Virus record (IMG/VR): IMGVR_UViG_3300032225_001536
Location: 1-61,473 of that record
From: a virus
Taxonomy: Duplodnaviria; Caudoviricetes
DNA: 61,473 bases
Reading direction: 5' to 3' (one strand)
Below the pieces are notes generated by a model. The model was given only the letters and a program-made list of their open reading frames with translations. It did not search any database and was not told the DNA's origin. Positions within the stretch are counted from its first letter, which is position 1. Each line of letters opens with the position of its first letter. Shown piece by piece: positions 3,306 to 55,869 of this stretch. The position numbers were made by a program, and so were the translations under genes.

Positions 3306-4460
3306 ATGAGTTTTAATAGGAATCAAATTGCTTTTATTAAAGCAGCAGAGAATTTGTATGGCGTTGGTGCTATATTAAACCGTGATAACATTCAGCATGT
3401 TGCACGTGAAGAAGATATGGCATTCCCATTTTGGTTTGTAACCAAATCTGAATATCGTTCAGGTCGTGGTCAATACCAACTTCCTGATATTGGTACCAAG
3501 CCAGTAGTTAAAGTTAGTATACCCGCAGGTGCTGAACATGAACAATATGATGTTGCACTATCTGCACAAGTGCTGGCATTCAAGCAACCAAAGTTGATTG
3601 ATGATTCAGATGTTTCAATACCTACAAAATATCCTGATTATGTTCCATTTGGATTCTTTAAAGACCTTACTAATATTATCAAGTCTAATCAGTTTTATCC
3701 TGTGTTTATTACTGGTCTTTCTGGAAATGGGAAGACACTTATGGTCGAGCAAGTTTGTGCTACACTTAACCGTGAATGCATTCGTGTTAACATTTCAATT
3801 GAAACTGATGAAAGTGATTTGTTGGGTGGTCCTACTCTTGTCAACGGTAATGTGGTTAATCGTGATGGACCTGTTATTACAGCAATGAAACGTGGTGCCA
3901 TTCTGTTAATTGACGAAGTTGACCGTGGTTCTAATAAATTAATGTGTTTGCAAGGTATCTTAGAGGGCAAACCATATTTCAATAAAAAATCTGGTGAGTT
4001 AGTACAACCAAAGAATGGTTTTAATGTGGTTGCAACTGCAAATACTAAAGGTAAAGGTTCAGAAGAAGGTCGTTATCTATCGCAAATCCTTGATGATGCT
4101 TTCTTAGAACGATTCCCTATCACCGTTGAACAGGAATATCCTGATGCCAAAACAGAGAAAAAGATTCTTACACCATTAATTGATAATCCTGAGTTTGTTG
4201 ATAACCTATGCCAATGGGCTGATGTAGTTCGCAAATCATTTGAACAAGGTGCTATTGATGAGATTATCTCTACACGCCGTCTGGTTCACATTGCACAAGC
4301 ATACAAATTATTTGGTGACAAGATGAAAGCAATTGAGCTTTGTGTCTCTCGTTTTGATTCTGAAACTAAAATGGCATTCTTAGATTTGTATTCCAAAGTG
4401 GATGCAAAAGTGGAAGCACCACAAGTATCTGAATCTTCACCACAAGAAATAGCGTTCTAA
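3306..4460 (+). CDS. MoxR/CbbQ-type AAA+ ATPase (usually annotated CobS-like in T4-like phages)
   Basis: GLSGNGKT Walker A, LLIDEVD Walker B, ATANTKGKG, LDDAFLERF, ISTRRLVHI. Confidence 0.85.
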   Translation: MSFNRNQIAFIKAAENLYGVGAILNRDNIQHVAREEDMAFPFWFVTKSEYRSGRGQYQLPDIGTKPVVKVSIPAGAEHEQYDVALSAQVLAFKQPKLIDDSDVSIPTKYPDYVPFGFFKDLTNIIKSNQFYPVFITGLSGNGKTLMVEQVCATLNRECIRVNISIETDESDLLGGPTLVNGNVVNRDGPVITAMKRGAILLIDEVDRGSNKLMCLQGILEGKPYFNKKSGELVQPKNGFNVVATANTKGKGSEEGRYLSQILDDAFLERFPITVEQEYPDAKTEKKILTPLIDNPEFVDNLCQWADVVRKSFEQGAIDEIISTRRLVHIAQAYKLFGDKMKAIELCVSRFDSETKMAFLDLYSKVDAKVEAPQVSESSPQEIAF

Positions 4461-4478
4461 AATCCTACACAGATATGG

Positions 4479-4507
4479 TTGCCAACATGCCATATTTGTG
4501 TTATAAT
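4479..4507 (+). promoter_or_regulatory. sigma70-type early promoter
   Basis: TTGCCA-N17-TATAAT with extended TG. Confidence 0.75.
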
Positions 4508-4550
4508 TCATATGTTGGTTTTTTATTATTAATTTTTGAAAGGACATTAT

Positions 4551-4877
4551 ATGTCAAACACAGTTCGTAAAGGCAAACCAAATCGCCATGAGAAAATCAC
4601 CGTAACATTGCTATCAGGCAAACCAGTATCTCCTGATGAGATTAAATCGGTGTTTGCTGGTACAGACCAAGAAGCGGTGTTGTATCGACTATCAACAAAC
4701 ATTTACAATATCCGTAAAGACGGTGGTATTGTGAAAGTTATCAAAGAAGGTCGTAAAGTGAAAGCATATCAATTGGTTAATCACACCGAGTTTGATGCTA
4801 ATGGTCGTTATGTTGGTAAAACAACCGTTTCTACAAAAGAAACGACTGTTACTCCTACAGAAACAGTAACGGCCTAA
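4551..4877 (+). CDS. basic hypothetical protein, possibly winged-helix DNA-binding
   Basis: AAGGA RBS before ATG 4551; helix-helix then beta-hairpin pattern (RLSTNIYNIRKDGGIVKVIKEGRKVKAYQL). Confidence 0.55.
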   Translation: MSNTVRKGKPNRHEKITVTLLSGKPVSPDEIKSVFAGTDQEAVLYRLSTNIYNIRKDGGIVKVIKEGRKVKAYQLVNHTEFDANGRYVGKTTVSTKETTVTPTETVTA

Positions 4878-4878
4878 T

Positions 4879-5079
4879 ATGGAAAAGATTATAACAGTTG
4901 TGGGTCTACTCAGCATTATTGTACTATTCAGCTTTTTGCTGAGTTGGCCAGTAATGATTCTTTGGAATAGTTGCCTTGTTGGTGCTATCAATGGAGTTAA
5001 TCAAATTGAATGGATGCAGGCGTGGGGCATTAACCTATTGGCTGGTATAATTTTTAAATCTGGTGTGAGTACTAAATGA
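4879..5079 (+). CDS. small membrane protein
   Basis: Two hydrophobic segments, WMQAWGI motif. Confidence 0.6.
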   Translation: MEKIITVVGLLSIIVLFSFLLSWPVMILWNSCLVGAINGVNQIEWMQAWGINLLAGIIFKSGVSTK

Positions 5080-5303
5080 ATGATTTTGACCGTGACAACC
5101 TTGAATTCTTTCTTCATGGAGACCAAGAAGAATTTGAGGCATGGATGAATGAAGCATCAACGGAAGATTTAGACTATGCACTTAAATTGATTCGAATTGC
5201 AAAATCCGAATTGATTGAACAGGAATATGCATTGTATGATGACATTCCTTTTGTGGATGATGCTAAAACATATTTGAAAAAGTTCACAAAAAGTGAACAC
5301 TAA
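5076..5303 (+). CDS. hypothetical protein
   Basis: ATGA overlap with the upstream ORF; acidic, 75 aa. Confidence 0.6.
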   Translation: MNDFDRDNLEFFLHGDQEEFEAWMNEASTEDLDYALKLIRIAKSELIEQEYALYDDIPFVDDAKTYLKKFTKSEH

Positions 5304-13214: not shown

Positions 13215-13352
13215 TGGCACAAGTACCAGCCTTATTTCTACCAAAGAAAAAAACTGAGGATAAGCCTCAAGTAAAGAATTCAAGTAAGAATCGAAAGAAA
13301 AAGAAATCCGATTCTAACATAAAAGTTTCAGTATTATTTCAAAGGGGAATTG

Positions 13353-14117
13353 ATGGTTACAAAAAAAACAACAGCCAGATACGCAGCGGAACAATTGCAG
13401 GATGATGAGAATAAAACAAGGCATCAACCAGCAGTAAGTAATTCATTAAAGATTAAACCTGACCATCTAAAAACATTTGAACCATTAACAGAAAATCAAA
13501 GATTATTCTTTGAAATGTACAAAGGCGGTGCCTACTTCATGGGACTATTTGGTAGTCCTGGGGTAGGCAAAACTTTTTTGGCACTTTATAAATCATTAGA
13601 AGAAGTTTTGGATAAATCCAATTCTTTTAAACAAGTGGTAATTGTTCGTTCATTGGTACAATTACGTGATGTTGGTTATCTTCCTGGAAATCTTGATGAA
13701 AAACAGGAAATATATGAGTTGCCTTACAAAGAGATTTGTAGTACACTCTTTGGAAGACCAGATGCATGGGACCGATTAAAGGAACAAGGACATTGCAGGT
13801 TCATTTCAACTACAGCAATTCGTGGTATCTCTATTGATGATGCTATTATTATTGTAGATGAAAACCAAAACTTAAACTGGTCAGAAGTGAATACAATTAT
13901 TACCCGTGTTGGACACAGGTCTAAAATTATATTCTCAGGTGATTTTAAACAAACAGATTTAATTAAGAGTAACAAAGACCAGACAGCATTCCATAGTTTC
14001 TTGGAAGTGGCGAGAAAAATGCCATCATTTCAGGAGATTTACTTTACACCAGACGATATCGTTCGTTCTAGTCTAGTTAAACAATGGATCGTGGCCTGTG
14101 AAGACTTAGGTTACTAG
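13353..14117 (+). CDS. phoH: PhoH-like ATPase
   Basis: GSPGVGKT, VGYLPG, IRGISIDD, IIVDENQN, TRVG, SGDFKQTD, DIVRS. Confidence 0.92.
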   Translation: MVTKKTTARYAAEQLQDDENKTRHQPAVSNSLKIKPDHLKTFEPLTENQRLFFEMYKGGAYFMGLFGSPGVGKTFLALYKSLEEVLDKSNSFKQVVIVRSLVQLRDVGYLPGNLDEKQEIYELPYKEICSTLFGRPDAWDRLKEQGHCRFISTTAIRGISIDDAIIIVDENQNLNWSEVNTIITRVGHRSKIIFSGDFKQTDLIKSNKDQTAFHSFLEVARKMPSFQEIYFTPDDIVRSSLVKQWIVACEDLGY

Positions 14118-14152: not shown

Positions 14153-15607
14153 ATGATTTTTGAAATTAAGGCCACTCGATTTGAGGATGGTGATACAAAG
14201 ACTTTCCATTATGACAACATGAATAATGTGTTGACTGATGCTGATGGTAATGTTTTTGAATATCCAGAGGACCAAAGGCAACAAAACTTTAATAAACCCT
14301 ACAAGTCTTTTGATAAGAATCACCCTCTGAAAAAGGCCAAATTGATTAGTACATTAAAAATCCAAATGGGTTTAAGTTGTAATTATTCTTGTGATTATTG
14401 TTCACAGAAGTTTGTGGAACGTCAAGTGGAAACATCCAAGAAGGATATCGATGACTTCATGGAAAAAATAAAAGCACTACACTTTGATGAAGATGTTGGA
14501 CTGAAGGTTGAGTTTTGGGGTGGTGAACCATTGGTTTATTGGAAAACACTAAAACCATTGGCGGAAGCTATTGCTGAAAAATTTGAATCATGGAAAAGAA
14601 AACCACAGTTTGGTATCATCACCAACGGCTCAATTTTAACTGATGAGATTATCGATTGGTTAATGATGATGGACTTTTCTGTGGCAATCTCACATGATGG
14701 ACCAGGCCAACACGTCCGTGGTCCTGATCCGTTTGATGATCCTGAGAAAAAAGAAACAATTCTTGGTTTCCGTAGAATGATGATTAGACTAGGTAAGCAT
14801 TTCAGTTTCAATTCAATGTTGAATTCTAAAAACCAAAGTAGAAAAGAAATCTATGATTGGTTTGTAAACCTGACTGGTGACGAAGATGTTATTCTTGGTG
14901 AAGGTTCTCTGGTTGATGCTTATGATGAAGAAGGTATTTCCAACTCATTGATAACAAAACAAGAACACTTTCAATTTAGGCAGAAAGCTTTTGGTGAATT
15001 GTATGGAACCCAAGGCAAGATAGGTTTCAGAGGTCAACTAGGTAAGATTGATGATTTTATTACTGGTGTATTAAGTCACAGACAATCCAAATTCGTTGGA
15101 CAGAAATGTGGTATGGACGATGAACATACGATTGCAGTTGACTTACGTGGTAACGTAATGACTTGCCAGAACGTTAGTTCATTGGAAATCTCTAAGAACG
15201 GAGAATCACATCATGGTGGAACTTTGGATGACTATTCAAATGTACAATTAAAATCTGTTACACATTGGTCAAATCGTAAAGAATGTCCAGAATGTCCAGT
15301 ACTACACCTATGTAAAGGTGCTTGTATGTTCTTGGATGAGAAATTCTGGGATATTTCTTGTTCTAATGCCTATTCAGATAATGTGGCTCTATTTGCCGCT
15401 GGTTTTACATTAATGACAAACGGTTATATTCCAACTCTGATTAAGAGTGATACATTACCATTAGACAGACAAGACATTTTTGGTACTATTTTTGACCACG
15501 GAATCGATGAAGGTCGTAAAAAAATCATACCAATCAAGGTGGTTAAAGAGATTGTTGGTGAAGTAGACGATGTTCCTGTTTACGGCAAATCTAGGTTGGA
15601 AACATAA
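14153..15607 (+). CDS. radical SAM enzyme with SPASM domain (peptide/protein maturase family)
   Basis: CNYSCDYC cluster motif, FWGGEPL, ITNGS, AISHDG; SPASM cysteines CGMDD...VDLRGNVMTC...CPECPVLHLCKGAC...C; GAGGA RBS. Confidence 0.92.
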   Translation: MIFEIKATRFEDGDTKTFHYDNMNNVLTDADGNVFEYPEDQRQQNFNKPYKSFDKNHPLKKAKLISTLKIQMGLSCNYSCDYCSQKFVERQVETSKKDIDDFMEKIKALHFDEDVGLKVEFWGGEPLVYWKTLKPLAEAIAEKFESWKRKPQFGIITNGSILTDEIIDWLMMMDFSVAISHDGPGQHVRGPDPFDDPEKKETILGFRRMMIRLGKHFSFNSMLNSKNQSRKEIYDWFVNLTGDEDVILGEGSLVDAYDEEGISNSLITKQEHFQFRQKAFGELYGTQGKIGFRGQLGKIDDFITGVLSHRQSKFVGQKCGMDDEHTIAVDLRGNVMTCQNVSSLEISKNGESHHGGTLDDYSNVQLKSVTHWSNRKECPECPVLHLCKGACMFLDEKFWDISCSNAYSDNVALFAAGFTLMTNGYIPTLIKSDTLPLDRQDIFGTIFDHGIDEGRKKIIPIKVVKEIVGEVDDVPVYGKSRLET

Positions 15608-15610
15608 ATA
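15604..15610 (+). promoter_or_regulatory. T4-type late promoter-like motif
   Basis: ATAAATA about 30 nt upstream of the Cys-rich gene. Confidence 0.45.
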
Positions 15611-15640
15611 GTAGAATAATAATCTAAAGAGTACACTAAC

Positions 15641-16546
15641 ATGACACTACCTTTATCTGCAAATACAATTTCCGTAGCCCAAATTGAAACCGAACTTACA
15701 ATTAATGTTGGAACACAAAAAGATTTGAATTTTTTAAATGGTTATATAAAATCTGGTTTAAGGCCGGCATCACCAAATATGGCCGCTTTTTTTGGTTTGA
15801 AGTATTATTTACAGAATTCTGCTGGTAACTGTAATAATGCTAATATATCAAATTGTAACTGTGATAACTGTAGTAGTCCCGCAAGTAATTGCAGCGCAAC
15901 AAATAACTGTAGTAATGTAAATTGTGCAAACTGTGACGCACAAGCATGGTTGCAACTTGGTGATTGTTTTAATGATCCAGCACCCGTTTATAATTGTACT
16001 AGTGACCAAAATTGTTTCTTGGTTGATTGTAATTGTTCAAAGATTATTTGCACCAAATTATTTGACTTAGGCCTAATGAAGAAGAATATCTTTGAAGCTG
16101 ACCAAGCATTTGGTGAACAATTAATCAAAACTCATCCAGACATTTACAATGGTTATCGTGCATGGGCTGAGATTGTTGTTGATTGGATGGACGGCAAAGG
16201 ACCGAAGATGATGCCTTGGATGTCTGATGAAGATTTTAGTATAGCTGCCAAAAAATGGTCTATCACATGGGCTCACGATATTGCAACACCTTGGGCTGAA
16301 GAAATGGCCTATTTGATGGGTGAAAAAGAAACTGGTAGTCTTACTGGTAAAATGATGTTTGCATTTGGTACACCAATCTGTAAAGTTATTGGTGTATGGC
16401 AACGTTGGTTTGGTCCAAGTAAGAAAGAACCTGGTTTCTTAAAAGGTGCAGGTCTTGTTATTATTTTTGTCATGTTCAAATTGGTTGCAGAACTTGGTAG
16501 ATTGATTGAAAGGTTCATTCCTAAAAAGGAGTTGTCTAATGGATGA
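15641..16546 (+). CDS. Asn/Asp-Cys repeat protein, putative radical SAM substrate, with virion-protein-like N-terminus and a C-terminal KIICT domain
   Basis: Residues 63-132 carry 13 Cys, 11 as NC and 2 as DC; N-terminus MTLPLSANTISVAQIETE resembles 22682 MTLPTSGNPIKLSDIQTE; hydrophobic C-terminal helix. Confidence 0.7.
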   Translation: MTLPLSANTISVAQIETELTINVGTQKDLNFLNGYIKSGLRPASPNMAAFFGLKYYLQNSAGNCNNANISNCNCDNCSSPASNCSATNNCSNVNCANCDAQAWLQLGDCFNDPAPVYNCTSDQNCFLVDCNCSKIICTKLFDLGLMKKNIFEADQAFGEQLIKTHPDIYNGYRAWAEIVVDWMDGKGPKMMPWMSDEDFSIAAKKWSITWAHDIATPWAEEMAYLMGEKETGSLTGKMMFAFGTPICKVIGVWQRWFGPSKKEPGFLKGAGLVIIFVMFKLVAELGRLIERFIPKKELSNG

Positions 16547-16841
16547 AGAAGTTACAGAGATAAAACAACCTGTTTTAATAACCACAGATGACGATGGTGA
16601 ATCTTTTATACATGACCATCTAACACATTTCTTTAATACACAAAGTTATAATATTATCAATTCGTTTTCTCAAACAGACAAAGAACGTTATTTCAAATTG
16701 GTAACTGAACATGAATCTTTGATAACAAAGCTTTATGGAGATGCTGTATTGAATGCTCAAGGATTTGTTCCAGTGGCTTTGAGAAATGGTGTTGATAATG
16801 AATTGGTTCAACAATATAAAATATGGTTGGAGACAAGATGA
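16539..16841 (+). CDS. hypothetical protein (paralogue of the next gene)
   Basis: AAGGAG RBS before ATG 16539; FIHDHLTHFF...FSQTDKERYF aligns with the next ORF. Confidence 0.65.
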   Translation: MDEEVTEIKQPVLITTDDDGESFIHDHLTHFFNTQSYNIINSFSQTDKERYFKLVTEHESLITKLYGDAVLNAQGFVPVALRNGVDNELVQQYKIWLETR

Positions 16842-17218
16842 AAGATACCTACACCTCAATGGAAACCGTAACAACCTGTTGTGGTAATACGGTTATTTTC
16901 GTTCATAGTCAGGTAATGAAATTCTTCAAAGAAACATTTGAAAAAAATTATTCAAATTTCACAACTGAAGAAAAAGAAGAATTCTTTCACATTGATAATG
17001 AATATGGAGATTTGTTGGCCAAGATTTGGAAAGAACCACTGCAAGATATGTTGAAAACTTCATATGGTGCTGATTGGGCGTTGCCACATGAAGAAAGAAA
17101 TCCAACACAAGAGTATGAATATGTTTTGGCAAACAGAGACAATGATTTAACTGATGAACAATACAATCTAAAATTAGAAAGATTGAGACAACACAAAGAA
17201 TGGTTTGAAAGTCAGTAA
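16838..17218 (+). CDS. hypothetical protein (paralogue of the previous gene)
   Basis: ATGA overlap, GGAG RBS; FVHSQVMKFF...FTTEEKEEFF. Confidence 0.65.
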   Translation: MKDTYTSMETVTTCCGNTVIFVHSQVMKFFKETFEKNYSNFTTEEKEEFFHIDNEYGDLLAKIWKEPLQDMLKTSYGADWALPHEERNPTQEYEYVLANRDNDLTDEQYNLKLERLRQHKEWFESQ

Positions 17219-17232
17219 GAATACTTTTTATT

Positions 17233-17946
17233 ATGAAACAAAATATTATGACAAAAGCGGAAAGAGACCGCTATCACTGGTATCAAAATGCACAAAATAT
17301 GTTTTGGCAAAGTCCAATCTGGGAAGTTCAAACCAGATTTGATGAGCAATTTAATCAAACCTTATTAGATGAAATTTACGGTATCGGAAAAGATATCGTA
17401 TTGGGTAAAGATAAAGACCCAAAAAATAGTATATGGGACTACAGCAGACCCAATTTAGATATACTAAAACAAGAAATTATAGATATTGTAACCAAAAAAA
17501 TTGTACAGAATATTCCACAACTTAGGATGTTAAACATTCGTGGTTGTGAACATTTTATGGGTTGGATTAATGTCCGAGAGCCAGGTGAACAATTAGAAGT
17601 ACATGGACATACCGAATCAGCAATCGCTGCAACATATTATATTAAAGCAAAAGAAGGTTGTGGTGATTTAGTTGCCTTTGATTCATCAAATGCAATTGAT
17701 TGGTTAAACAACCGTCTGAGTGCAAATCCATCTTTACGTGAACGTAGATTTAAACCAGTAGAAGGTAGATTAATTTTCTTTCCATCATATGTATTACATG
17801 GTGTGGATGAGAATAAATCAAATGACCTGCGTATTTCTTTATCAACTGACCTCAGAAAAGTAGTAGAGAAAAATGCTGCTAATACTGTTATCTTAAAATC
17901 TTGGGCTAACAGAATGGCAAAAATTAAAGAATGGAAACCTGATTGA
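17233..17946 (+). CDS. 2OG-Fe(II) oxygenase (TIGR02466-like)
   Basis: WINV..PG....VHGH...ATYY...GDL...GRLIFFPSYVLHGV...RISLS. Confidence 0.85.
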   Translation: MKQNIMTKAERDRYHWYQNAQNMFWQSPIWEVQTRFDEQFNQTLLDEIYGIGKDIVLGKDKDPKNSIWDYSRPNLDILKQEIIDIVTKKIVQNIPQLRMLNIRGCEHFMGWINVREPGEQLEVHGHTESAIAATYYIKAKEGCGDLVAFDSSNAIDWLNNRLSANPSLRERRFKPVEGRLIFFPSYVLHGVDENKSNDLRISLSTDLRKVVEKNAANTVILKSWANRMAKIKEWKPD

Positions 17947-18479
17947 TGTTTACCAAATTGGCAAAGCCATTTGAAAGACCACTTTATGCAATCACCGATC
18001 CACTAAAGACATTTAAAGGTGATGATGGTAGAGGCATAGATTACAAAAAAGTTTGGACACCAGAAGTAGAAAAAGTTTATGGTGTGTTACCAAAAAAATA
18101 CTGGCAAGATTTTCACTTGACAGTTATGACAATTGATTGTATAATACCACCACATACGGATACAGAAATTATTACCTCAATTAATTTCTATCTACAAACA
18201 GAAGGATGTAGAACTACATTTTTTAAACCAAAGGTGAATAATCCAAGAACAGTACAGATTAAGAATCAAACTAATGGATGTATTTACTACGAAGAAGATT
18301 TGGTTGAGGTAGATAGTTTTGTTGCAGAAGATTATGATGTATGGTTGCTTGATGTAAGTCAAATACACAGCGTAAAAGGAGACTTTAAACTTAGAAAAGC
18401 CCTTACGTTAGGTACTTTCGTACATAAGTATGAGGAGGTACTTGAAATGTTAAAGGAAACAGGCAATGTCGTTCGTTAA
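17946..18479 (+). CDS. cupin / 2OG-Fe(II) oxygenase-like protein
   Basis: IPPHTD (HxD), INFY, LLDVSQIHSV (distal His), RKALT (Arg); TGATG coupling. Confidence 0.7.
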   Translation: MFTKLAKPFERPLYAITDPLKTFKGDDGRGIDYKKVWTPEVEKVYGVLPKKYWQDFHLTVMTIDCIIPPHTDTEIITSINFYLQTEGCRTTFFKPKVNNPRTVQIKNQTNGCIYYEEDLVEVDSFVAEDYDVWLLDVSQIHSVKGDFKLRKALTLGTFVHKYEEVLEMLKETGNVVR

Positions 18480-19134
18480 ATTAAAACATCTATATGAATA
18501 TATGCCACATACAATTATACCAAAAGGTCAAGCAGATTCATTTGCCGGTAAATTTGGTTTAGGAGTTAGACACAATACAATTTGGACACCTGAACCAGAA
18601 AAAATGGTGTTATATAAAGTTATTCCTGAAAGATACTGGAAAGATTTTCAAGTAACTCGTATGTCAATTAATAGTTTGTTATTACCTCATGTTGATAATG
18701 ATTTTATAACTACTATTAATTTTTATTATGAACCAGGAGATTACAGAACAATTTTCTTCAAAGCGAAAGACGGTGCTAATGCTTGGAAAACAGAAGAAGA
18801 TAGGCATACGGATGTTGATATTGGCAACATGGAAGCAACAGATATTAATGTGGATGATTTGAAAAGTCGTGTTAAAGAATTTGTAGCGGAGAAACAAAAT
18901 ATGCCGACATGTGAAGAAATCACATATGTTGATGCAGTATACTCTTTTGATGATGTATATGAAATTGGTTCTTTTGTGGCACAACGAAATGAAGCATATA
19001 TGTTAGATGTTAGAGTACCACACAATGTTGAACCTTTGGATGGCACCAAACTCAGGAAAGCGTTTGCCTTGAGAACTAGATACTATGATTATGGTCAAGT
19101 TTATGATATGTTAAAAGAAACTGGAAATTTATAA
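18466..19134 (+). CDS. cupin / 2OG-Fe(II) oxygenase-like protein, paralogue of 17946
   Basis: LLPHVD, INFY, MLDVRVPHNV, RKAFA; shares WTPE.EK, YW.DF and MLKETGN with the upstream gene. Confidence 0.7.
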   Translation: MSFVKLKHLYEYMPHTIIPKGQADSFAGKFGLGVRHNTIWTPEPEKMVLYKVIPERYWKDFQVTRMSINSLLLPHVDNDFITTINFYYEPGDYRTIFFKAKDGANAWKTEEDRHTDVDIGNMEATDINVDDLKSRVKEFVAEKQNMPTCEEITYVDAVYSFDDVYEIGSFVAQRNEAYMLDVRVPHNVEPLDGTKLRKAFALRTRYYDYGQVYDMLKETGNL

Positions 19135-19144
19135 AGGAAATAAG

Positions 19145-19918
19145 ATGTTTTTTGAGAAATTGGATTACACAGTTGATATTGAAAAATTAAAAAAAGAAGT
19201 ACGAGAAAGTGTATTCACATTAGGTGACCAAGTTGTTCAAGGCGAAGAATATGAAACACCACAATATCATGGTTTTGGTGGTTGGAGTTTGCTAAGTAGA
19301 AACGCCACATGGACTGATGGTTGGGAAGCCGTTCAGTTAGAATCTGGCCAAACACTAGAATCTTTTTTACCAACACAAGAATTAGTAAACAAAGCATATA
19401 AACATTTTGGTATATATCATGGGTTAGAACACGATAAACCAACGGAAGCTTATGTTGGTGAAATTAAAAAAGTATTAGATGATTTACGTGAACTTGGTTT
19501 TCATCCTTGTAGAGCAAGAGTCACTTGTTTGAAAGCACATTCAAAGAGTTTGGTTCACAAAGATTCAAATGAATCGGAATATATGGCTCGTATTCATATA
19601 CCATTATGGACAAATAAAAAGTCGATTCATATCTGTCGTGGCATGAATTTGCATATGCCTGCTGATGGTAGTGTTTATATTCTTTGGACAAATACTTGGC
19701 ATCAAATTAGAAATGATTCTGATGAAGACCGTTATCATATTATTATGGATGCATATGATACAAAGAAAATTACAAAGAGATTTAAATATGAAGGTGATTT
19801 TGAAATGTACCAAAATTGGGTACGTGGCCAGATGCAAAAAATTCATGATGTTGAATTAACTGAAGAAGATATTGATTTCTTTGAAGCAATTAAAGATAAG
19901 TACCTGAGTAAAAAATAA
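19145..19918 (+). CDS. Asp/Asn beta-hydroxylase-like 2OG-Fe(II) oxygenase
   Basis: RARVTCL..HSKSLVHKD, RIHIPLWTN, WHQIRN...RYHII. Confidence 0.75.
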   Translation: MFFEKLDYTVDIEKLKKEVRESVFTLGDQVVQGEEYETPQYHGFGGWSLLSRNATWTDGWEAVQLESGQTLESFLPTQELVNKAYKHFGIYHGLEHDKPTEAYVGEIKKVLDDLRELGFHPCRARVTCLKAHSKSLVHKDSNESEYMARIHIPLWTNKKSIHICRGMNLHMPADGSVYILWTNTWHQIRNDSDEDRYHIIMDAYDTKKITKRFKYEGDFEMYQNWVRGQMQKIHDVELTEEDIDFFEAIKDKYLSKK

Positions 19919-19921
19919 ATT

Positions 19922-21442
19922 ATGGATGACAGACATGGTATTATATTCACCGGTATGGAACGAACTAGAACAATTAGTCGTCCTGCCGGCGCTGCACGTT
20001 TGCGAACGTTTTTAGAAAAACATAATTATAATATCGAAGTTATAGATTATTTTGGTAATTTTACTGAAAAAGAATTGGAAAAACTTTGTGAAAGATACAT
20101 TGGTCCAAAAACTTTATTTGTTGGTATAAGTATCACATTCATCTATGCCTTTGATAAAATTAATTATCTATTTAAACATATTAAAGAAAAGTATCCTCAT
20201 GTAAAAACTTTGATTGGTGGTAATGAAACACCAATCGAAGGTGTCGATTTATCTATGGTAGATAAAATCTTTTGGGGTTATGCCGAAGAAGCAGTATTAC
20301 ATTATCTTAAATTTTTAACCAGAAAACTATTGAATGATTTACCTTGGGTGCCTTATAGAGGAACAAAATCTGTCAATGCGGAGATGTTATACAAAAATGA
20401 CACCGAAGATTTATCAATCAAATGGTTGGAAAGTGATTTGATTAAAAACAATTTTCTACCAATTGAAATTAGTAGGGGTTGTATCTTTAGATGTAGGTTC
20501 TGTGCATTCCCTTTGTTGGGTAAGAAGAAGAATGATTACATTCGTCACGTAGATAATCTATCCGATGAACTAAGAAGAAACTATGAAATGTTTGGTGTCA
20601 CCAACTATTGGTTCAATGATGATACATTTAATGATAATGTGGTAAAATTGGAGTATGTTGCCGAAGCCATTGCAAAAAGTGGTGTTAAGATAACATATAC
20701 AGCATTTCTTAGAGCAGATTTGATTGAACGTTTTCCTGAAACTATTCCGATGCTAGGTGACACAGGCTTGGTAGCGGCCACATTTGGCTTAGAAACATTA
20801 CATCCAGAAGCAAAAAAAGCTATTGGTAAAGGATTAGATAATGAAAGACAATTTGAGGCTATTCGTCAGTTAAAGAAATACAAACCAACATACACATATA
20901 CAGGCATGATTTGTGGTTTACCTGGAGAACCAATTTCTAGTGTATTGAAAAGTCAACAGTTGTTACTTGACCAAAATTTTGAAGTATTTGATAATTGGGA
21001 TTGGTGGCCACTATTGATTAGAAAAGGTTCTATCAGTCGTTTGAGTGAATTTGAACGTGAGTATGAAAAGTGGGGTTATTCCGAAATGTTACCTGGAGAA
21101 TATACAGTTCCTTCAGGTGACAATGATTTAAAATACGCTACCGATAATGACGGCGTTATGATATGGAAAAATAAGTATACAAATTGGTACACTTGTAGAG
21201 GAATTACCAGCCAATTAAATATTGAAACCGAAAAACACAGAATTAAAGCCGGCAAATCAATTTATGGCAATGCAGATAAAGGTGTAAGTATTAACCATGA
21301 TGTATACGAATTAGTTGGACTAGGTGTTGATATTAAGGACATTATCAACGGTACTTTTGATAAAGCTCTTTTGAATAAAAAAATACGTGAGGCTGATGAA
21401 ACAATTTTGGAATACAAAAAATTGAAGTTGGGTTTATTATGA
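19922..21442 (+). CDS. cobalamin-binding radical SAM enzyme (class B methyltransferase-like)
   Basis: N-terminal B12-binding-like region (GAARLRTFL...VGISITF...TLIGG...GYAE), EISRGCIFRCRFC, FNDDTF, FGLET, ICGLPGE. Confidence 0.88.
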   Translation: MDDRHGIIFTGMERTRTISRPAGAARLRTFLEKHNYNIEVIDYFGNFTEKELEKLCERYIGPKTLFVGISITFIYAFDKINYLFKHIKEKYPHVKTLIGGNETPIEGVDLSMVDKIFWGYAEEAVLHYLKFLTRKLLNDLPWVPYRGTKSVNAEMLYKNDTEDLSIKWLESDLIKNNFLPIEISRGCIFRCRFCAFPLLGKKKNDYIRHVDNLSDELRRNYEMFGVTNYWFNDDTFNDNVVKLEYVAEAIAKSGVKITYTAFLRADLIERFPETIPMLGDTGLVAATFGLETLHPEAKKAIGKGLDNERQFEAIRQLKKYKPTYTYTGMICGLPGEPISSVLKSQQLLLDQNFEVFDNWDWWPLLIRKGSISRLSEFEREYEKWGYSEMLPGEYTVPSGDNDLKYATDNDGVMIWKNKYTNWYTCRGITSQLNIETEKHRIKAGKSIYGNADKGVSINHDVYELVGLGVDIKDIINGTFDKALLNKKIREADETILEYKKLKLGLL

Positions 21443-22038
21443 AATGTTTCTGGACAAGAGAAGAAATATCTATTGCAGATGAATTGATGGAATTAGCACC
21501 ACAATTACGTGATGAATTTTTAGAATATCATAAAGATTTTGACACAACATTTAAAGGTGGTACACCATACTCTGCAGTTAACTCTCAGGCAATTTTAGAT
21601 GATGTTCCAGGAAAAATTGATTGGAAAGTTGAAGGTCTACGTTATGCTTTACCAGAAAGAAAAATAGAACAGAATCTTTTTTTGGAATCAAGAATCGCTA
21701 CTATTTTTCCAACAGCAACAAAGTTAACTAAGAAATATTTCAAGTGTGTTGGTTGTAGTGGTTACAGCAGTTTAGAACCTTATGGTATAATCAAAAAACA
21801 CGTTGATGTTGAAAACAGGCGGCATAAATTTGTTAGAATACATATACCACTAATCATACCAGAAGGTGATGTTGGCCTTGAGGTTAATGGTCAAAAATTA
21901 TATTGGTCAGATTTGTTTGCATTTGATAATGGAGAAAAACATAGTGCATACAACAGAACCAAAAAACGAAGATTAATTTATATTATAGATATAACTAGAG
22001 ATTTCTTATCAATTCCTGAATACAAAAATAATGTTTAA
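21439..22038 (+). CDS. aspartyl/asparaginyl beta-hydroxylase family protein
   Basis: YSSLEPYGIIKKHVD, RIHIPLIIPEG, FAFDNGEKHSAYN...RLIYIID. Confidence 0.82.
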   Translation: MKCFWTREEISIADELMELAPQLRDEFLEYHKDFDTTFKGGTPYSAVNSQAILDDVPGKIDWKVEGLRYALPERKIEQNLFLESRIATIFPTATKLTKKYFKCVGCSGYSSLEPYGIIKKHVDVENRRHKFVRIHIPLIIPEGDVGLEVNGQKLYWSDLFAFDNGEKHSAYNRTKKRRLIYIIDITRDFLSIPEYKNNV

Positions 22039-22681
22039 CTATTGTCCACCTAAAGATTTAGAAGATTTAAAATCAACCACATTCCCTGATGGTAAGAGGT
22101 ATTATACCACACCAGATGGTGTGAAACTACCATCGGTCACCACAGTAATTGGTGCAAAAGGTAAACAGGCCATCATGGAATGGCGTAAGAGAGTTGGTGA
22201 AGAAGAAGCCAATAAGATATCACGCAAGGCTTCATCACGTGGTACAAATGTTCATACACTATGTGAACGTTACTTAAACAATGAACCACTTGGTGATATT
22301 ATGCCTGATGCAAAGGCAATGTTCCTACCACTTAAACCTCTATTAAACAGAATCAACAATATTCATTACCAAGAATGTGCGTTGTGGTCAGTTAAACTCG
22401 GAATGGCTGGTCGTGTTGATTGTATTGGTGAATTTGATGGTGTTCTGTCGGTGATTGACTTTAAAACATCCAAACGAATTAAGAAAAAAGAAGATATTGA
22501 TAATTATTTCGCACAATGCGTTGCATATGCTTGTATGTATGAGGAATTGATTGGAACCGGCATCGACCAAATTGTTATTATTATGGCTGTGGATAATGAG
22601 GATCCATTGGTTTTTATAGAGAAAACGTCAGACCATCTAAATACTCTAATGGAATATATAAAATTTTATAGGGAAAATTAA
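22031..22681 (+). CDS. PD-(D/E)XK exonuclease (T4-like phage exonuclease)
   Basis: LPSVTTV, WRKRVGEEEAN, RGTNVH, AGRVDCI, IDFKTS, YFAQCVAYA. Confidence 0.85.
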   Translation: MFNYCPPKDLEDLKSTTFPDGKRYYTTPDGVKLPSVTTVIGAKGKQAIMEWRKRVGEEEANKISRKASSRGTNVHTLCERYLNNEPLGDIMPDAKAMFLPLKPLLNRINNIHYQECALWSVKLGMAGRVDCIGEFDGVLSVIDFKTSKRIKKKEDIDNYFAQCVAYACMYEELIGTGIDQIVIIMAVDNEDPLVFIEKTSDHLNTLMEYIKFYREN

Positions 22682-23878
22682 ATGACACTACCAACATCAG
22701 GTAATCCAATCAAATTATCCGACATTCAAACAGAATATGGTGGTTCGAATCCAATCAGTATAAGTGAATATAGGAGTGGTGCTGGTTATGTTAGTTATAC
22801 TGAAAGTGGTGTCGGTACTTCGCAAGTGAACATTGGAAGCTTAAGGGGTTTAAGTTCATTAACCACCAATCCACGAGCCAACAATATCTCATCTCTTTCT
22901 TCATTTTTCAATACAAGTACATACAGGATGAATGGTATAAGGATGGACAGTATTGATGGAAAAAATGTTGTTGCAACTGCAGAAGTTTTTGATACCACGG
23001 GTTTTACTATTGCTATTGCATCTTTTTATTCAAACAATTCCGGCAATACCTGGACACAAGGCAATTCAATTTCAATATTTCGTCCAGTACTTTCAGACAT
23101 GAGATATGTTCCTTGGGCTGAACTATATGTGATGTGTGCAAACTCAAACAACCAAAGATCCGTAATTTACACTTCACCGGATGGTGTAACATGGACAGCA
23201 AAAACAAATTATCCTGTTTGGTATCTTGGTACACCTGGTGGTTCATCTGATGCACGCTTTTATGTCACCAGCAATGGTTTGTATGCATACACATATGGAG
23301 GTGAAGTAAGTTACACGACTTCTTATAGTGGAGGAGATTTCACTTGGACAACACCAGTTAAAATTATTCCATTAGATGGTACCAATAGAAGACCTGTTAA
23401 CCAATTGATATTTGATGGTACATATTGGTATGCTGGATCATATAAAGGATTGTTTAGGAATACAAGTTTAAGTACACCAGATTGGACACCATTAACATTT
23501 GGTAATGGTCAAACATGTTATGGAATAACTTATAATTCATCAACATATGAATATTTGTGTCAAATTGGTTCATATTATTATAAATCTACAGACGGATTTA
23601 CATCATCTTCATACACTGCCGTAAATGGGGGGTATAGCACTGGTGGTCCTATTGTGTGGGATCCAGTAACAAAGATATATGCTCAACGAACTAATAGCTA
23701 TTCAGTATTATCTGTAAGTACTGATGGTGTTTATTGGGTAAATGCAAGTTCAAATTATAGCATGTATTTTTATAGTAATCCAGTTTTTAAAAATGGTACA
23801 TTATTTGCGGCTGGATCAGATGCTGCTGCTTACGGCTCAGGCACATGGCATTGGTATTTTTTGAGAGGACCAAATTAA
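22682..23878 (+). CDS. putative tail-tip adhesin / receptor-binding protein with Asp-box (BNR) beta-propeller
   Basis: N-terminal LPTSG.PI.LSDIQTEYGGSNPISISEY motif of phage fibre-associated proteins; Asp-box-like repeats YSNNSGNTW, YTSPDGVTW, YKSTDGFT, VSTDGVYW. Confidence 0.65.
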   Translation: MTLPTSGNPIKLSDIQTEYGGSNPISISEYRSGAGYVSYTESGVGTSQVNIGSLRGLSSLTTNPRANNISSLSSFFNTSTYRMNGIRMDSIDGKNVVATAEVFDTTGFTIAIASFYSNNSGNTWTQGNSISIFRPVLSDMRYVPWAELYVMCANSNNQRSVIYTSPDGVTWTAKTNYPVWYLGTPGGSSDARFYVTSNGLYAYTYGGEVSYTTSYSGGDFTWTTPVKIIPLDGTNRRPVNQLIFDGTYWYAGSYKGLFRNTSLSTPDWTPLTFGNGQTCYGITYNSSTYEYLCQIGSYYYKSTDGFTSSSYTAVNGGYSTGGPIVWDPVTKIYAQRTNSYSVLSVSTDGVYWVNASSNYSMYFYSNPVFKNGTLFAAGSDAAAYGSGTWHWYFLRGPN

Positions 23879-23882
23879 TCCA

Positions 23883-23911
23883 TTGCCAAAGAATTCGGAG
23901 TATGTTATACT
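23883..23911 (+). promoter_or_regulatory. sigma70-type promoter of the tmRNA gene
   Basis: TTGCCA(23883-88)-N17-TATACT(23906-11), extended TG. Confidence 0.75.
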
Positions 23912-23917
23912 TCGATG

Positions 23918-24250
23918 ATAATGATAGTAAACTTGATATAAGAAAAGTATTCTGGACGGGGGTGCAAATCCCCCCAGCTCCACCAGAAGCATACTTAAAT
24001 CTCTACAAAACCGAAAGGTTGGGATCAGGATTGGTAAGCCGTGACCTCTACGATGTAAGTCAATTTCACCATAGTATGTTTCTGATGGGGCTGCATAGTT
24101 TCGACAGGGTAACAAGTACGATATTCGGCTATCCGTCAGAGTTGACGTAAAAACTAAAACAAAGTAACCGCAAACGACTCACGTTTCGCATTGGCTGCCT
24201 AAACGCAGACTAGGGTTTCGGTTGGTTTCCTCGTAACAGAATAACCAACC
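23918..24250 (+). ncRNA. ssrA: circularly permuted (two-piece) tmRNA
   Basis: Acceptor piece first: T-arm GGGGG-TGCAAAT-CCCCC and CAGCTCC-A-CCA ending at 23985. Then an intervening segment, then the coding piece starting GGGGCTG at 24087 (pairs with CAGCTCC, G3.U70), D-loop TTTCGAC, and tag ORF 24170-24202 ANDSRFALAA*. Outer ends are approximate. Confidence 0.93.
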
Positions 24251-24256
24251 ATTTTT
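24220..24256 (+). terminator. hairpin plus T-tract at the tmRNA 3' end
   Basis: GGTTGGTT...AACCAACC followed by ATTTTT. Confidence 0.55.
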
Positions 24257-24276
24257 AAATTTAAAAAGGAGTTTTT

Positions 24277-24726
24277 ATGAAGAAGTTAGTATTATCTGCG
24301 TTAGCAGTAGTATCGTTAGCTGCAAGCGCAGTTGAAGTTGGTGTGACAGCAGTTGACCAATCATCACTAAGTCCAAAACGTTATGGTTATGGTGTTACAG
24401 TTGGTGAAACATTTGCTGGTGTTAATGTAACTGCTGGTGCTTCACGTTTTTCACGTGAAGATAATGACCAAAATCGTTATACTTTAGTTGCTAGCAAAGA
24501 TGTTGTTTCTTTAGGTCCAGTTGGTTTCAATGGTCGTCTAGGTACAGCTTACTTGTCTAATAACACAGGCGCAAATGGTTTTGCATTAACTGCTGGTGTT
24601 GGTGCAACTGTTCCGGTTATGAAAAATGTAACTGCTGGATTGTCGTTTGACCGCCAGTTCGGCCAAAGCCGTGTTAGTTCTTTTGACGGTAATATTATTA
24701 CTGCTGGAATTAAAGTAGGATTCTAA
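24277..24726 (+). CDS. small outer-membrane beta-barrel protein (Ail/Lom/OmpX-like)
   Basis: Sec signal MKKLVLSALAVVSLAASA; alternating hydrophobic beta-strands; C-terminal AGIKVGF BAM signal; AGGAG RBS. Confidence 0.78.
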   Translation: MKKLVLSALAVVSLAASAVEVGVTAVDQSSLSPKRYGYGVTVGETFAGVNVTAGASRFSREDNDQNRYTLVASKDVVSLGPVGFNGRLGTAYLSNNTGANGFALTAGVGATVPVMKNVTAGLSFDRQFGQSRVSSFDGNIITAGIKVGF

Positions 24727-55527: not shown

Positions 55528-55869
55528 ATGTCAGCTGGATACCAAGAATTATTTTTAGAAAAAGGCACAGACTTTACCACTTCCATCACTTTAGATGATG
55601 TAAACGGCAATGCCTATAATTTGACTGGTTTTACTGCTAAAAGTCAAGTCAGAAAATCTTATTATTCTTCTTCTACTACAGCAGAATTCGTAATTACGAT
55701 TAATGCACCAACAACAGGTGTAATTAATATGTCACTCAATTCGGCGAACACATCCAATATTGCACCAGGTCGTTATGTATATGATGTTGTCATTAAAGAT
55801 TCTGCCAATACAGTAACAAGGGTCTTAGAAGGAATTGTGAACGTAACACCACAAGTAACCGTATTCTAA
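55528..55869 (+). CDS. virion structural protein (BppU N-terminal-like Ig fold)
   Basis: L..EKGTDF, YNLTG.TAKSQVRKSY.S, GRYVYDVVI...RVLEGIV.V.P.VT. Confidence 0.75.
   Translation: MSAGYQELFLEKGTDFTTSITLDDVNGNAYNLTGFTAKSQVRKSYYSSSTTAEFVITINAPTTGVINMSLNSANTSNIAPGRYVYDVVIKDSANTVTRVLEGIVNVTPQVTVF

Follow-up and report, generated by a model that had tools for sequence, protein, structure and literature searches.

What does a T4-like phage do with a SPASM-type radical S-adenosylmethionine (SAM) enzyme, a protein crowded with Asn-Cys (NC) and Asp-Cys dipeptides and five oxygenase-like proteins, all encoded side by side? The question is raised by the linear viral record IMGVR_UViG_3300032225_001536, which was analyzed over its whole length of 61,473 bases (hereafter the window; completeness estimate ~36%). 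The source is a T4-like myovirus, with matches to baseplate wedge, tail and tail-fibre PHROGs in the 34-61 kb part of the window. Between phoH and a gene for a PD-(D/E)XK-type exonuclease, ten closely packed, co-oriented open reading frames (ORFs), termed g1 to g10, occupy positions 14153-22038 of the + strand, with spacings of -41 to +33 nt between adjacent genes (Table 1). An earlier note, made from the sequence alone, had described nine genes in this arrangement; its coordinates and both flanking genes are borne out, and the count is ten.

We propose, with moderate confidence, that the core of this cluster is a maturation module for the tip of a tail fibre. The SPASM enzyme and an ORF rich in Asn/Asp-Cys dipeptides are a real, conserved pair, and in distant lineages the same dipeptide repeat forms the C-terminal tail of genuine tail fibres.

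A SPASM enzyme paired with Asn/Asp-Cys repeats

The product of g1 belongs to the radical SAM superfamily. It matches PF04055 with 40.9 bits (cut-off 29.5) and phrog_1802 (1.6e-60), and the cysteines of its CX3CX2C motif (C76, C80 and C83) are invariant in two alignments, of 8 and 39 sequences. The SPASM signature, which provides for two auxiliary 4Fe-4S clusters, consists of seven Cys in the order CX9-15GX4C ... CX2CX5CX3C ... C. All seven are found in g1, as C319-x13-G333-x4-C338, C378-x2-C381-x5-C387-x3-C391 and C403, and they are invariant in the same two alignments. We assign g1 to the SPASM subgroup because of this motif and because of full-length alignments to the CcpM, DynA and anSME models. 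The earlier note's SPASM radical SAM gene is upheld, though no Pfam SPASM model is listed for g1 at E<=0.1.

The best NCBIfam matches of g1 include the thioether-forming or Cys-directed maturases PapB, QhpD, CcpM and SCIFF, all far below their cut-offs. The top match, PapB (NF047865), scores 82 bits against a cut-off of 340 and aligns only with the radical SAM core (residues 65-185), and the third-best, QhpD (TIGR03906), scores 67 bits against 453; g1 is a member of neither family. The anSME model TIGR03942 aligns with residues 72-392 at 47.6 bits (cut-off 349). The nearest solved structures are 8VPO and CteB. When a profile of 39 g1 sequences was searched against 1.84 billion proteins, the g1 clade comprised 404 representative clusters at E<=1e-30. 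The named phages closest by g1 are Ralstonia phage RSP15 (46% identity) and Achromobacter phages JWF and 2-1 (~42%).

The adjoining gene, g2, encodes a protein of three parts: residues ~1-45 form an N-terminal motif, ~57-137 a core rich in Asn/Asp-Cys, and ~134-298 a helical C-terminal domain. Its Cys share, 4.98% against a median of 1.0%, is the highest among window ORFs of at least 150 amino acids, and it alone among the 190 window ORFs of at least 50 amino acids contains two or more consecutive [ND]C dipeptides. The description of a Cys-rich protein downstream of the SPASM gene was accurate: 13 of the 15 Cys are preceded by Asn (11) or Asp (2), and the 81-residue core holds 18 Asn and 14 Cys. 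Four dipeptides (N63-C64, N97-C98, N118-C119 and N131-C132) are kept across 51 sequences. A conserved Cys, in an 'IIC' motif, stands at the start of the helical domain, a parallel to Cys1 of the Hint domains described below.

The association of the two genes was assessed in three sets of loci, with counts that rest on our own ORF calls and simple patterns. Because many loci share ancestry, the counts are not independent events. The first set comprises 78 distinct T4-like loci from viral contigs, with g1 identities of 59-87%. In 77 of them, eight or more [ND]C dipeptides are found in exactly one + strand ORF; counted over all ORFs, this amounts to 77/1843 on the + strand versus 0/1174 on the - strand. 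Most of these 77 ORFs (70) lie within 100 nt 3' of g1, four are downstream behind inserts of 0.7-1.5 kb, and three are directly upstream. The upstream forms (in loci L072, L073 and L075) are only 131-136 amino acids long, share the N-terminal motif and end within the Cys-rich run. Because they lack the helical domain, this domain is an add-on.

The second set derives from a scan of one genome per prokaryotic species, from which the best 80 of 174 confirmed relatives (g1 identity 36-70%) were taken. These loci are prophage-like and come mostly from freshwater Burkholderiales, for example Limnohabitans and Polynucleobacter. Of the best 80, 58 have one ORF on the same strand in which three or more [ND]C dipeptides follow one another (58/2114 ORFs on the + strand versus 0/2121 on the - strand). 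The strict pattern is found in 51 of the 57 loci that have at least 3.5 kb upstream, and five of the six misses still have an NC-rich tail, so that 56 of 57 are paired. In most of the 58 loci, the repeat is followed by 0-11 residues before the C-terminus, and in five by 18-31; two of the 58 proteins extend past the repeat into a Hint domain.

The third set reverses the test. Viral contigs were scanned for DNA encoding NCNCNC[ND]C, which yielded at least 120 stretches, and 80 loci were listed. The repeat is in frame in 55 of the 80 listed loci and, among the matches listed, a g1 homologue (26-77% identity, in some only 26-31%) accompanies it in 44 of these 55. In ten of the other 11, the contig ends within 2.5 kb on the side where the enzyme is expected.

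The earlier note had named, as a finding that would count against it, SPASM homologues that lack an Asx-Cys-rich (Asx, Asn or Asp) neighbour; the neighbour is present in 77 of 78 T4-like and 56 of 57 bacterial loci. The pairing spans RSP15 (an ackermannvirus), JWF (called a siphovirus in a passage of PMC9959647), the T4-like lineage and prophage-like bacterial loci. It also spans fibre architectures from tip proteins of 131 amino acids to collagen fibres of 616 amino acids and enzyme identities down to 26%. Judged by this distribution the pairing is old, and mere inheritance is disfavoured because it persists across such lineages, architectures and identities. We consider it very likely that g1 acts on the NC-rich element.

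Asn/Asp-Cys tails and tail fibres

NC-tailed proteins sampled from the bacterial and pattern-derived loci match tail-fibre PHROGs in 15 of 18 cases (8/10 and 7/8), and two of the sampled proteins carry collagen triple-helix repeats. The usual gene order in prophages is an NC-tailed fibre, a protein of ~275 amino acids with weak Ig-like matches, an oxygenase of 185-210 amino acids, the radical SAM enzyme and lysis genes. T4-like loci lack the ~275-residue family, which occurs in prophage-type loci and RSP15. In RSP15, the radical SAM gene is located in the tail module, three genes 3' of an annotated side tail fibre of 290 amino acids that ends in an NC-containing Cys tail. In JWF, it lies two genes after gp028 (L002 7811-9262), a fibre-type protein whose N/D-C run leads straight into Cys1 of a Hint domain (Pfam, from residue 308). 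Self-cleavage by the Hint domain would leave the N/D-C repeat as the mature C-terminus. The repeat likewise runs into a Hint domain in L108 3742-5271, L092 3217-4347 and L238 291-1286.

Fibre genes also adjoin the module in some T4-like loci. The stop codon of a gp37-like distal fibre gene (phrog_11011, 8e-31 and 3e-36) is overlapped in L075 and L085 by a short Cys-rich gene (131-136 amino acids); the C-terminal 120-140 residues encoded by the fibre gene match the final part of 'long tail fiber distal subunit' profiles. In L053 and L055, a gp37-like gene ends 5-11 nt before the radical SAM gene. The position directly after the distal fibre gene is that of gp38 in T-even phages. In the window, a fibre-assembly gene follows the gene for a 903-residue tail fibre whose distal C-terminal domain is gp37-like. 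The last 139 amino acids of this fibre are 56% identical to the L085 protein encoded directly 5' of the short Cys-rich protein, and it is a candidate docking partner of g2.

The earlier note's suggestion that the enzymes act on a virion protein and not on a secreted peptide gains from the NC tails of these fibres: a tail-fibre protein of the virion, not an exported peptide, is very probably the target. That the NC-rich element is itself part of the virion seems likely, with lower odds for g2 than for the prophage fibres.

A different explanation would make g2 and its short relatives products of the infected cell that resemble ribosomally made peptides with post-translational modifications (RiPPs). 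Matured by g1 and the oxygenases, they might act on competitors as a toxin, bring about superinfection exclusion or inhibit a host protein. The 131-136-residue forms do resemble large precursor peptides, g2 has no fibre domain and ends in a hydrophobic helix, and the module resides among genes of early or auxiliary type (phoH, exonuclease), outside the tail block. However, the same repeat is the C-terminal tail of genuine tail fibres in distant lineages (the 15 of 18 above), and the short forms come after the distal fibre gene. Neither a protease nor an exporter is in evidence; the earlier note had remarked on this, and no transporter or protease family was matched in g1-g10 in Pfam, PHROGs or NCBIfam. 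Moreover, a profile hidden Markov model (HMM) built on residues 1-36 of g2-family proteins also finds a 398-residue protein of the window that is not Cys-rich (E 2e-4) and its 362-residue counterpart in L072 (2e-7). Because the motif is common to g2 and the 398-residue protein, a docking element fits better than a maturase-specific leader. Altogether we find the explanation by a non-virion product quite unlikely.

By its shared motif, the 398-residue protein is possibly another protein that docks at the virion site of g2. It has no Pfam or PHROG match and none in phage records. It is rich in Ser, Thr, Gly and Tyr, and contains several S-x-D-G-x-T-W-like stretches that look like the Asp-box repeats of a beta-propeller.

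The helical domain of g2, predicted by AlphaFold2 (AF2) with a predicted local distance difference test (pLDDT) score of 81-90, recurs at the C-termini of larger phage proteins. One of these, a 616-residue protein without a Cys-rich core (L081 7669-9519, Synechococcus phage SynMITS9220M01), adjoins a 'fiber protein'. It consists of glycine-rich repeats, then 33 prolines and 8 arginines, then a helical domain with 36.9% identity to that of g2 (E 7e-16). A Foldseek search of the PDB with the g2 model returned nothing at E<=1e-3. An apparent resemblance of the helical domain to bacterial E3-ligase helical catalytic domains (VIA-align Z 6.2-6.4) was set aside as below the level that is meaningful for helical bundles. 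A GP38 row in the protein Atlas (TM 0.25) was not used; the other Atlas rows are unnamed viral clusters. Pfam gives no match of g2 to the gp38 adhesin family PF05268, and the likeness to gp38 lies only in the gene position after a gp37-like gene in L075 and L085.

Under the fibre-tip reading, g1 would act on the (Asn/Asp-Cys)n-rich core of g2, and its likeliest product would be thioether bridges from the Cys sulfur to a carbon of the neighbouring Asn or Asp. PapB, QhpD, CcpM, the SCIFF maturase and CteB are enzymes that form Cys thioethers, and we suggest a Cys-to-Asx thioether because these are the characterized families nearest to g1; we offer it tentatively, as close to an even call. The PF13759 oxygenase g5 would introduce a second modification, most likely hydroxylation. 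The fibre would then end distally in a compact knot held by covalent staples, which might serve stability, trimer stapling, metal binding or receptor contact. We read the product as such a crosslinked tip because the repeat ends at the mature C-terminus of fibres or is carried by a small protein encoded at the fibre-tip position.

In most phages, the knot would comprise the final 8-20 residues of the fibre protein, and in some it would be exposed by the self-cleaving Hint domain. In the T4-like lineage, it would be placed on a separate small protein, g2, whose N-terminal motif would dock it on the virion, probably at the gp37-like fibre tip in the manner of a gp38-type adhesin. The genes g6 to g10 would be lineage-specific additions, which perhaps hydroxylate or methylate the same substrate further. 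The gene families, the repeat, its pairing with the enzyme across lineages and the fibre context were observed; we infer that g2 is the substrate and that it is in the virion, as we do each chemical step, including crosslinking, hydroxylation and C-methylation. In its widest form the proposal states that phages of several unrelated tail types build a covalently knotted, non-proteinogenic (Asn/Asp-Cys)n structure, at the receptor-contacting end of the fibre, by means of a dedicated radical SAM enzyme and a 2-oxoglutarate (2OG) oxygenase, a generalization that we consider just short of probable.

The same tails lend themselves to an explanation by metal. The thiolates of the Asx-Cys tails might cluster around metal on the fibre's three-fold axis, akin to the His-x-His iron sites of the T4 gp37 needle, and the radical SAM enzyme might serve another purpose, on a different residue or a non-protein substrate. 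Alternating C-x-C tails on trimeric (collagen-containing) fibres would place all Cys on one face of the strand, the motifs resemble those of metallothioneins, which bind metals through CxC-rich segments, and AF2, which models no ligand, gives the core no fold. A metal staple needs no enzyme, yet the radical SAM gene is present in 56 of 57 bacterial loci, 77 of 78 T4-like loci and, among those listed, 44 of 55 pattern-derived loci. In addition, conservation extends to the whole Asn-Cys dipeptide and is not limited to Cys. We judge a metal staple in place of an enzymatic one very unlikely.

Oxygenases and accessory genes

Reciprocal iterative searches among all ORFs of all loci show that g5 and the prophage oxygenase adjoining the radical SAM gene are one family. 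It is present in 65 of 78 T4-like loci, 64 of the best 80 bacterial loci and 32 of the 80 listed pattern-derived loci. All five prophage oxygenase candidates tested match PF13759, four of them below its cut-off. For g5 itself the PF13759 match is above cut-off (Table 1), and H124 and H189 are conserved in 34 sequences, prophage members included. The earlier label "TIGR02466-like 2OG oxygenase" stands as regards PF13759; the TIGR02466 score, 54.2, falls short of the cut-off of 62.5. Because g5 is the sole other enzyme found in all lineages and the other genes are narrower, the universal core is the NC repeat, the SPASM radical SAM enzyme and the PF13759 oxygenase.

The remaining genes largely fit their earlier descriptions. 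The two small proteins g3 and g4, described as paralogues, have weak pairwise similarity (E 3e-5), and iterative searches from each meet in a single family of 97 ORFs. There is no Pfam, PHROG or NCBIfam match for g3, and g4 has only a sub-threshold Pfam row. The pair g6 and g7, described as HxD..H cupin paralogues, are 33% identical (E 3e-33), with H71, D73, H142 and R151 invariant, and g7 carries an insertion of ~45 residues. The g6 model is a double-stranded beta-helix (pLDDT 93.3) with an HxD...H metal site. It has 28 Foldseek matches in the PDB at E<=1e-3, headed by YcfD, NO66 and MINA53 (E ~1e-4, TM ~0.4-0.45); Pfam, PHROGs and NCBIfam give no family match for g6 or g7.

The two genes that the earlier note called Asp/Asn beta-hydroxylase-like, g8 and g10, both exceed the PF05118 cut-off of 22.6 and keep their HxD...H triads; they are not close paralogues. 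The only NCBIfam matches of g10 are weak ones to LpxO and OlsC (25.8 against a cut-off of 500). A metal triad or His pair is retained in all five oxygenase-like genes. The claim of a cobalamin-dependent radical SAM enzyme holds for g9 as regards the radical SAM domain, whereas its score with the B12-binding model PF02310, 28.2, falls short of the cut-off of 32.1. The best NCBIfam matches of g9 are B12 radical SAM families, all far below cut-off (top PhpK, 95.7 bits versus 600).

Gene presence was counted in the 58 T4-like loci that have at least 6.5 kb downstream. Both g6 and g8 are present in 57 of 58, and iterative searches find neither family in prophage or listed pattern-derived loci. As a separate gene, g7 is present in 25 of 58. 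The B12 radical SAM gene is present in 21 of 58; g9 and g10 are found in 19 and 17, respectively, of the 22 loci with g1 at least 77% identical, versus none of the 29 more distant loci. The full tailoring pathway of crosslinking, hydroxylation and C-methylation enzymes proposed earlier is not supported as a single unit of ten genes. The earlier remark on orphan 2OG oxygenases of phages gains some substance from g5, which is tied to the pair in all lineages; g6 and g8 are confined to the T4-like lineage.

From their gene order, g6 to g10 may act on g2. A mosaic is the other explanation: g1, g2 and g5 would form one pathway, and g6, g7, g8, g10 and g9 would be independent auxiliary genes gathered at a hot spot, and their enzymes would act, for example, on lipid A or ornithine lipids of the host, on ribosomal proteins or on nucleic acids. 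The narrow range of g9 and g10, the presence of g7 as a separate gene in 25 of 58 loci and the absence of the g6 and g8 families from prophage and listed pattern-derived loci all agree with a mosaic. So do the position of g10 beyond the exonuclease gene in several relatives, its matches to lipid hydroxylases only (LpxO and OlsC), the ribosomal-protein hydroxylases that head the fold matches of g6, and the unrelated inserts at the same site in L028-L031 and L072. Against this, g6 and g8 accompany g1 and g2 in 57 of 58 T4-like loci, down to 59-65% g1 identity, and the LpxO and OlsC matches are far under cut-off. Enzymes of PF05118 hydroxylate Asp and Asn in Cys-rich EGF domains, an activity that would suit the composition of g2. 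We consider the mosaic quite possible, if somewhat short of probable, and it is compatible with a fibre-tip module at the core but competes with the single pathway of the earlier note.

The inserts are of several kinds. In L028-L031, the radical SAM gene is separated from the g2 homologue by one or two ORFs of ~240 amino acids; their N-termini are hydrophobic, a motif in them resembles a histidine box, and they are desaturase-like by eye only. The g1/g2 junction thus also gathers unrelated genes. In L072, a tryptophan halogenase gene (3702-5240; PF04820, 3.8e-99) lies two genes after the radical SAM gene. The short Cys-rich protein of this locus has Trp inside and at the end of its Cys tail, and the halogenase may be a further tailoring enzyme for it. 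A larger cluster in L176 (3051-11662, - strand) opens with an ORF of 79 amino acids whose end is an NC repeat; the cluster has two radical SAM genes (one g1-like, one other) and several genes of unknown role and may be a more elaborate version of the module. Two candidates were rejected. A B12 radical SAM gene in L182, considered as a second co-occurrence, is ~4 kb away on the opposite strand among unrelated genes. For RSP15 ORF046, which looks HxD...H-like by eye and was considered as a relative of g8 or g5, the BLAST comparison with g8 is not significant, and the g5 iterative searches miss it.

Several observations weigh against the fibre-tip module. Because g1 reaches no curated NCBIfam cut-off of any characterized maturase family, orthology gives no guide to its reaction. 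In AF2, the Cys-rich core of g2 has a pLDDT below 50 and no fold. In Pfam, PHROGs and NCBIfam, g2 has no family match, fibre domain included, and it is located 36 kb from the fibre genes of the window. CxC-rich tails could bind metals instead, with no enzyme required. Three loci depart from the pairing: L074, the single T4-like miss, has a degenerate ORF of 170 amino acids with the same N-terminus and only 8 Cys; L093, the one true exception among bacterial loci, has the radical SAM gene without an NC tail; and L197, from a giant-virus bin, has the repeat and 8.7 kb of flank without a radical SAM gene. The g5 family was undetected in 13/78, 16/80 and 48/80 loci of the three sets, many of them incomplete. 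Finally, phoH and the exonuclease gene are also kept in T4-like loci, and because gene order is generally conserved there, synteny in this lineage is weak evidence for g6 and g8.

Table 1. Features of the window discussed in the text
Feature	Position	Strand	Basis or remark
phoH, upstream flank of the cluster	13350-14117		phrog_170, 1.1e-67
g1, radical SAM enzyme with full SPASM Cys signature, core enzyme of the module	14153-15607	+	484 amino acids; PF04055, phrog_1802
g2, proposed substrate	15641-16546	+	301 amino acids; Asn/Asp-Cys-rich core
g3, small protein, paralogue of g4	16506-16841	+	start probably ATG at 16539
g4, small protein, paralogue of g3	16823-17218 (alternative start 16838)	+	pairwise and iterative searches
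g5, PF13759 2OG-Fe(II) oxygenase	17233-17946	+	PF13759, 62.1 bits (cut-off 27)
g6, double-stranded beta-helix (cupin/2OG-oxygenase fold), HxD...H	17943-18479	+	model and alignment
g7, paralogue of g6 with insertion	18466-19134	+	33% identity
g8, Asp/Asn beta-hydroxylase-family oxygenase (PF05118)	19145-19918	+	30.4 bits; H138, D140, H186 conserved
g9, radical SAM enzyme with N-terminal B12-binding-like domain	19922-21442	+	PF04055, 67.7 bits
g10, second PF05118 oxygenase	21439-22038	+	49.1 bits; H121, D123, H168 conserved
PD-(D/E)XK-type exonuclease, downstream flank of the cluster	22031-22681		phrog_298, 2.6e-75
398-residue protein with g2-type N-terminal motif	22682-23878	+	HMM of first 36 g2-family residues
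Permuted tmRNA	23869-24263	+	RF01850, 110 bits (gathering score 84); RF04321, 130 bits
149-residue ORF	24277-24726	+	
903-residue tail fibre with gp37-like distal C-terminal domain	52425-55136	+	tail-fibre and distal-subunit PHROGs
Distal-fibre domain of the 903-residue protein	54714-55130		
Fibre-assembly gene	55528-55869		

Comparison with known systems and meaning

Ranthipeptide and sactipeptide systems (PapB, CteB, NxxcB) resemble the module in that a SPASM radical SAM enzyme adjoins a Cys-/Asx-rich substrate; they also supply the top HMM matches of g1, and CteB is one of its two solved relatives. A RiPP cluster has a short leader-bearing precursor and a protease and/or exporter. Here, the partner is a protein of 131-616 amino acids, usually a tail fibre, with a strict (N/D-C)n run at its C-terminus, and g1-g10 include no protease or transporter. 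In quinohemoprotein amine dehydrogenase, QhpD makes Cys-Asp/Glu thioethers in the protein subunit QhpC. This SPASM enzyme thus crosslinks Cys to acidic residues in a structural subunit that is kept in a larger assembly, as proposed for g1; however, g1 scores far below the QhpD cut-off (67 versus 453), has no dehydrogenase genes near it and is partnered with a phage fibre. The anSME enzymes, whose substrate motif is C-x-P/A-x-R, are likewise SPASM radical SAM enzymes that modify a Cys of a full-size protein, and the JWF homologue was once annotated as anSME. They differ in that g1 scores 47.6 bits against 349, no sulfatase is present and the partners lack C-x-P/A-x-R.

The action of AspH on EGF domains has a parallel in g8 and g10, PF05118 enzymes that adjoin a small Cys-/Asx-rich domain of disulfide type, but these genes are T4-like only, no EGF consensus is present and the universal oxygenase partner belongs to PF13759. 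The tips of T-even fibres carry the gp38 adhesin in T2-type phages and a His-x-His iron needle in gp37 of T4. The module shares with them a small protein encoded directly after the distal fibre gene (L075, L085) or a short repeat of metal- or bond-forming residues at the very tip. The differences are the lack of a PF05268 match and the Atlas GP38 row, which at TM 0.25 is not meaningful; we also know of no dedicated redox enzymes for T-even fibre tips. Polytheonamide tailoring resembles the window in its combination of radical SAM, B12 radical SAM and Fe/2OG enzymes. This combination is not conserved, since the B12 enzyme is present in 21 of 58 T4-like loci, the closest relatives only, and no epimerase-type or N-methyltransferase genes were found.

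Terminator-like sites (7 found versus 5.3 expected) and the promoter scan show no excess over chance, and a near-identity DNA search of the cluster against phage records gave no match. Downstream of the cluster resides a permuted (two-piece), phage-borne transfer-messenger RNA (tmRNA) of the betaproteobacterial type, with the tag peptide ANDSRFALAA according to ARAGORN. Because the tmRNA is of this type and many loci with the module are from Burkholderiales, a betaproteobacterial host is indicated. The 149-residue ORF immediately 3' of the tmRNA has a signal-peptide-like N-terminus, an alternating hydrophobic pattern and no PHROG match.

Full-text searches, with subscription journals and supplements outside their scope, turned up nothing on radical SAM enzymes that act on phage fibres, on tails made of Asn-Cys repeats or on a substrate of PF13759, nor any account of radical chemistry that covalently modifies phage virion proteins. 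A passage of PMC12801897 calls a cyanophage radical SAM gene an antibiotic-synthesis gene, passages of PMC9959647 discuss relatives of JWF without mention of radical SAM, and those of PMC7159879 deal with unrelated SPASM systems. Enzyme-substrate pairs of this kind are known from RiPPs; what appears to be new is the class of substrate and its biological setting. Because the module is present in two cultured phages, Achromobacter phage JWF and Ralstonia phage RSP15, the prediction is directly testable.

If the proposal is correct, virions would be assembled with the help of RiPP-type post-translational chemistry, a kind of step new to phage assembly and carried out where the host range of the particle is decided, and RiPP-type enzymology would reach large structural proteins. 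A large orphan clade of radical SAM enzymes (the 404 representative clusters) and a widespread orphan oxygenase family would gain a testable substrate; for the PF13759 oxygenases, which are common in aquatic phages, it would be the first substrate class. The tip of the fibre would then amount to a natural product attached to a structural protein, which would bear on host recognition and particle stability.

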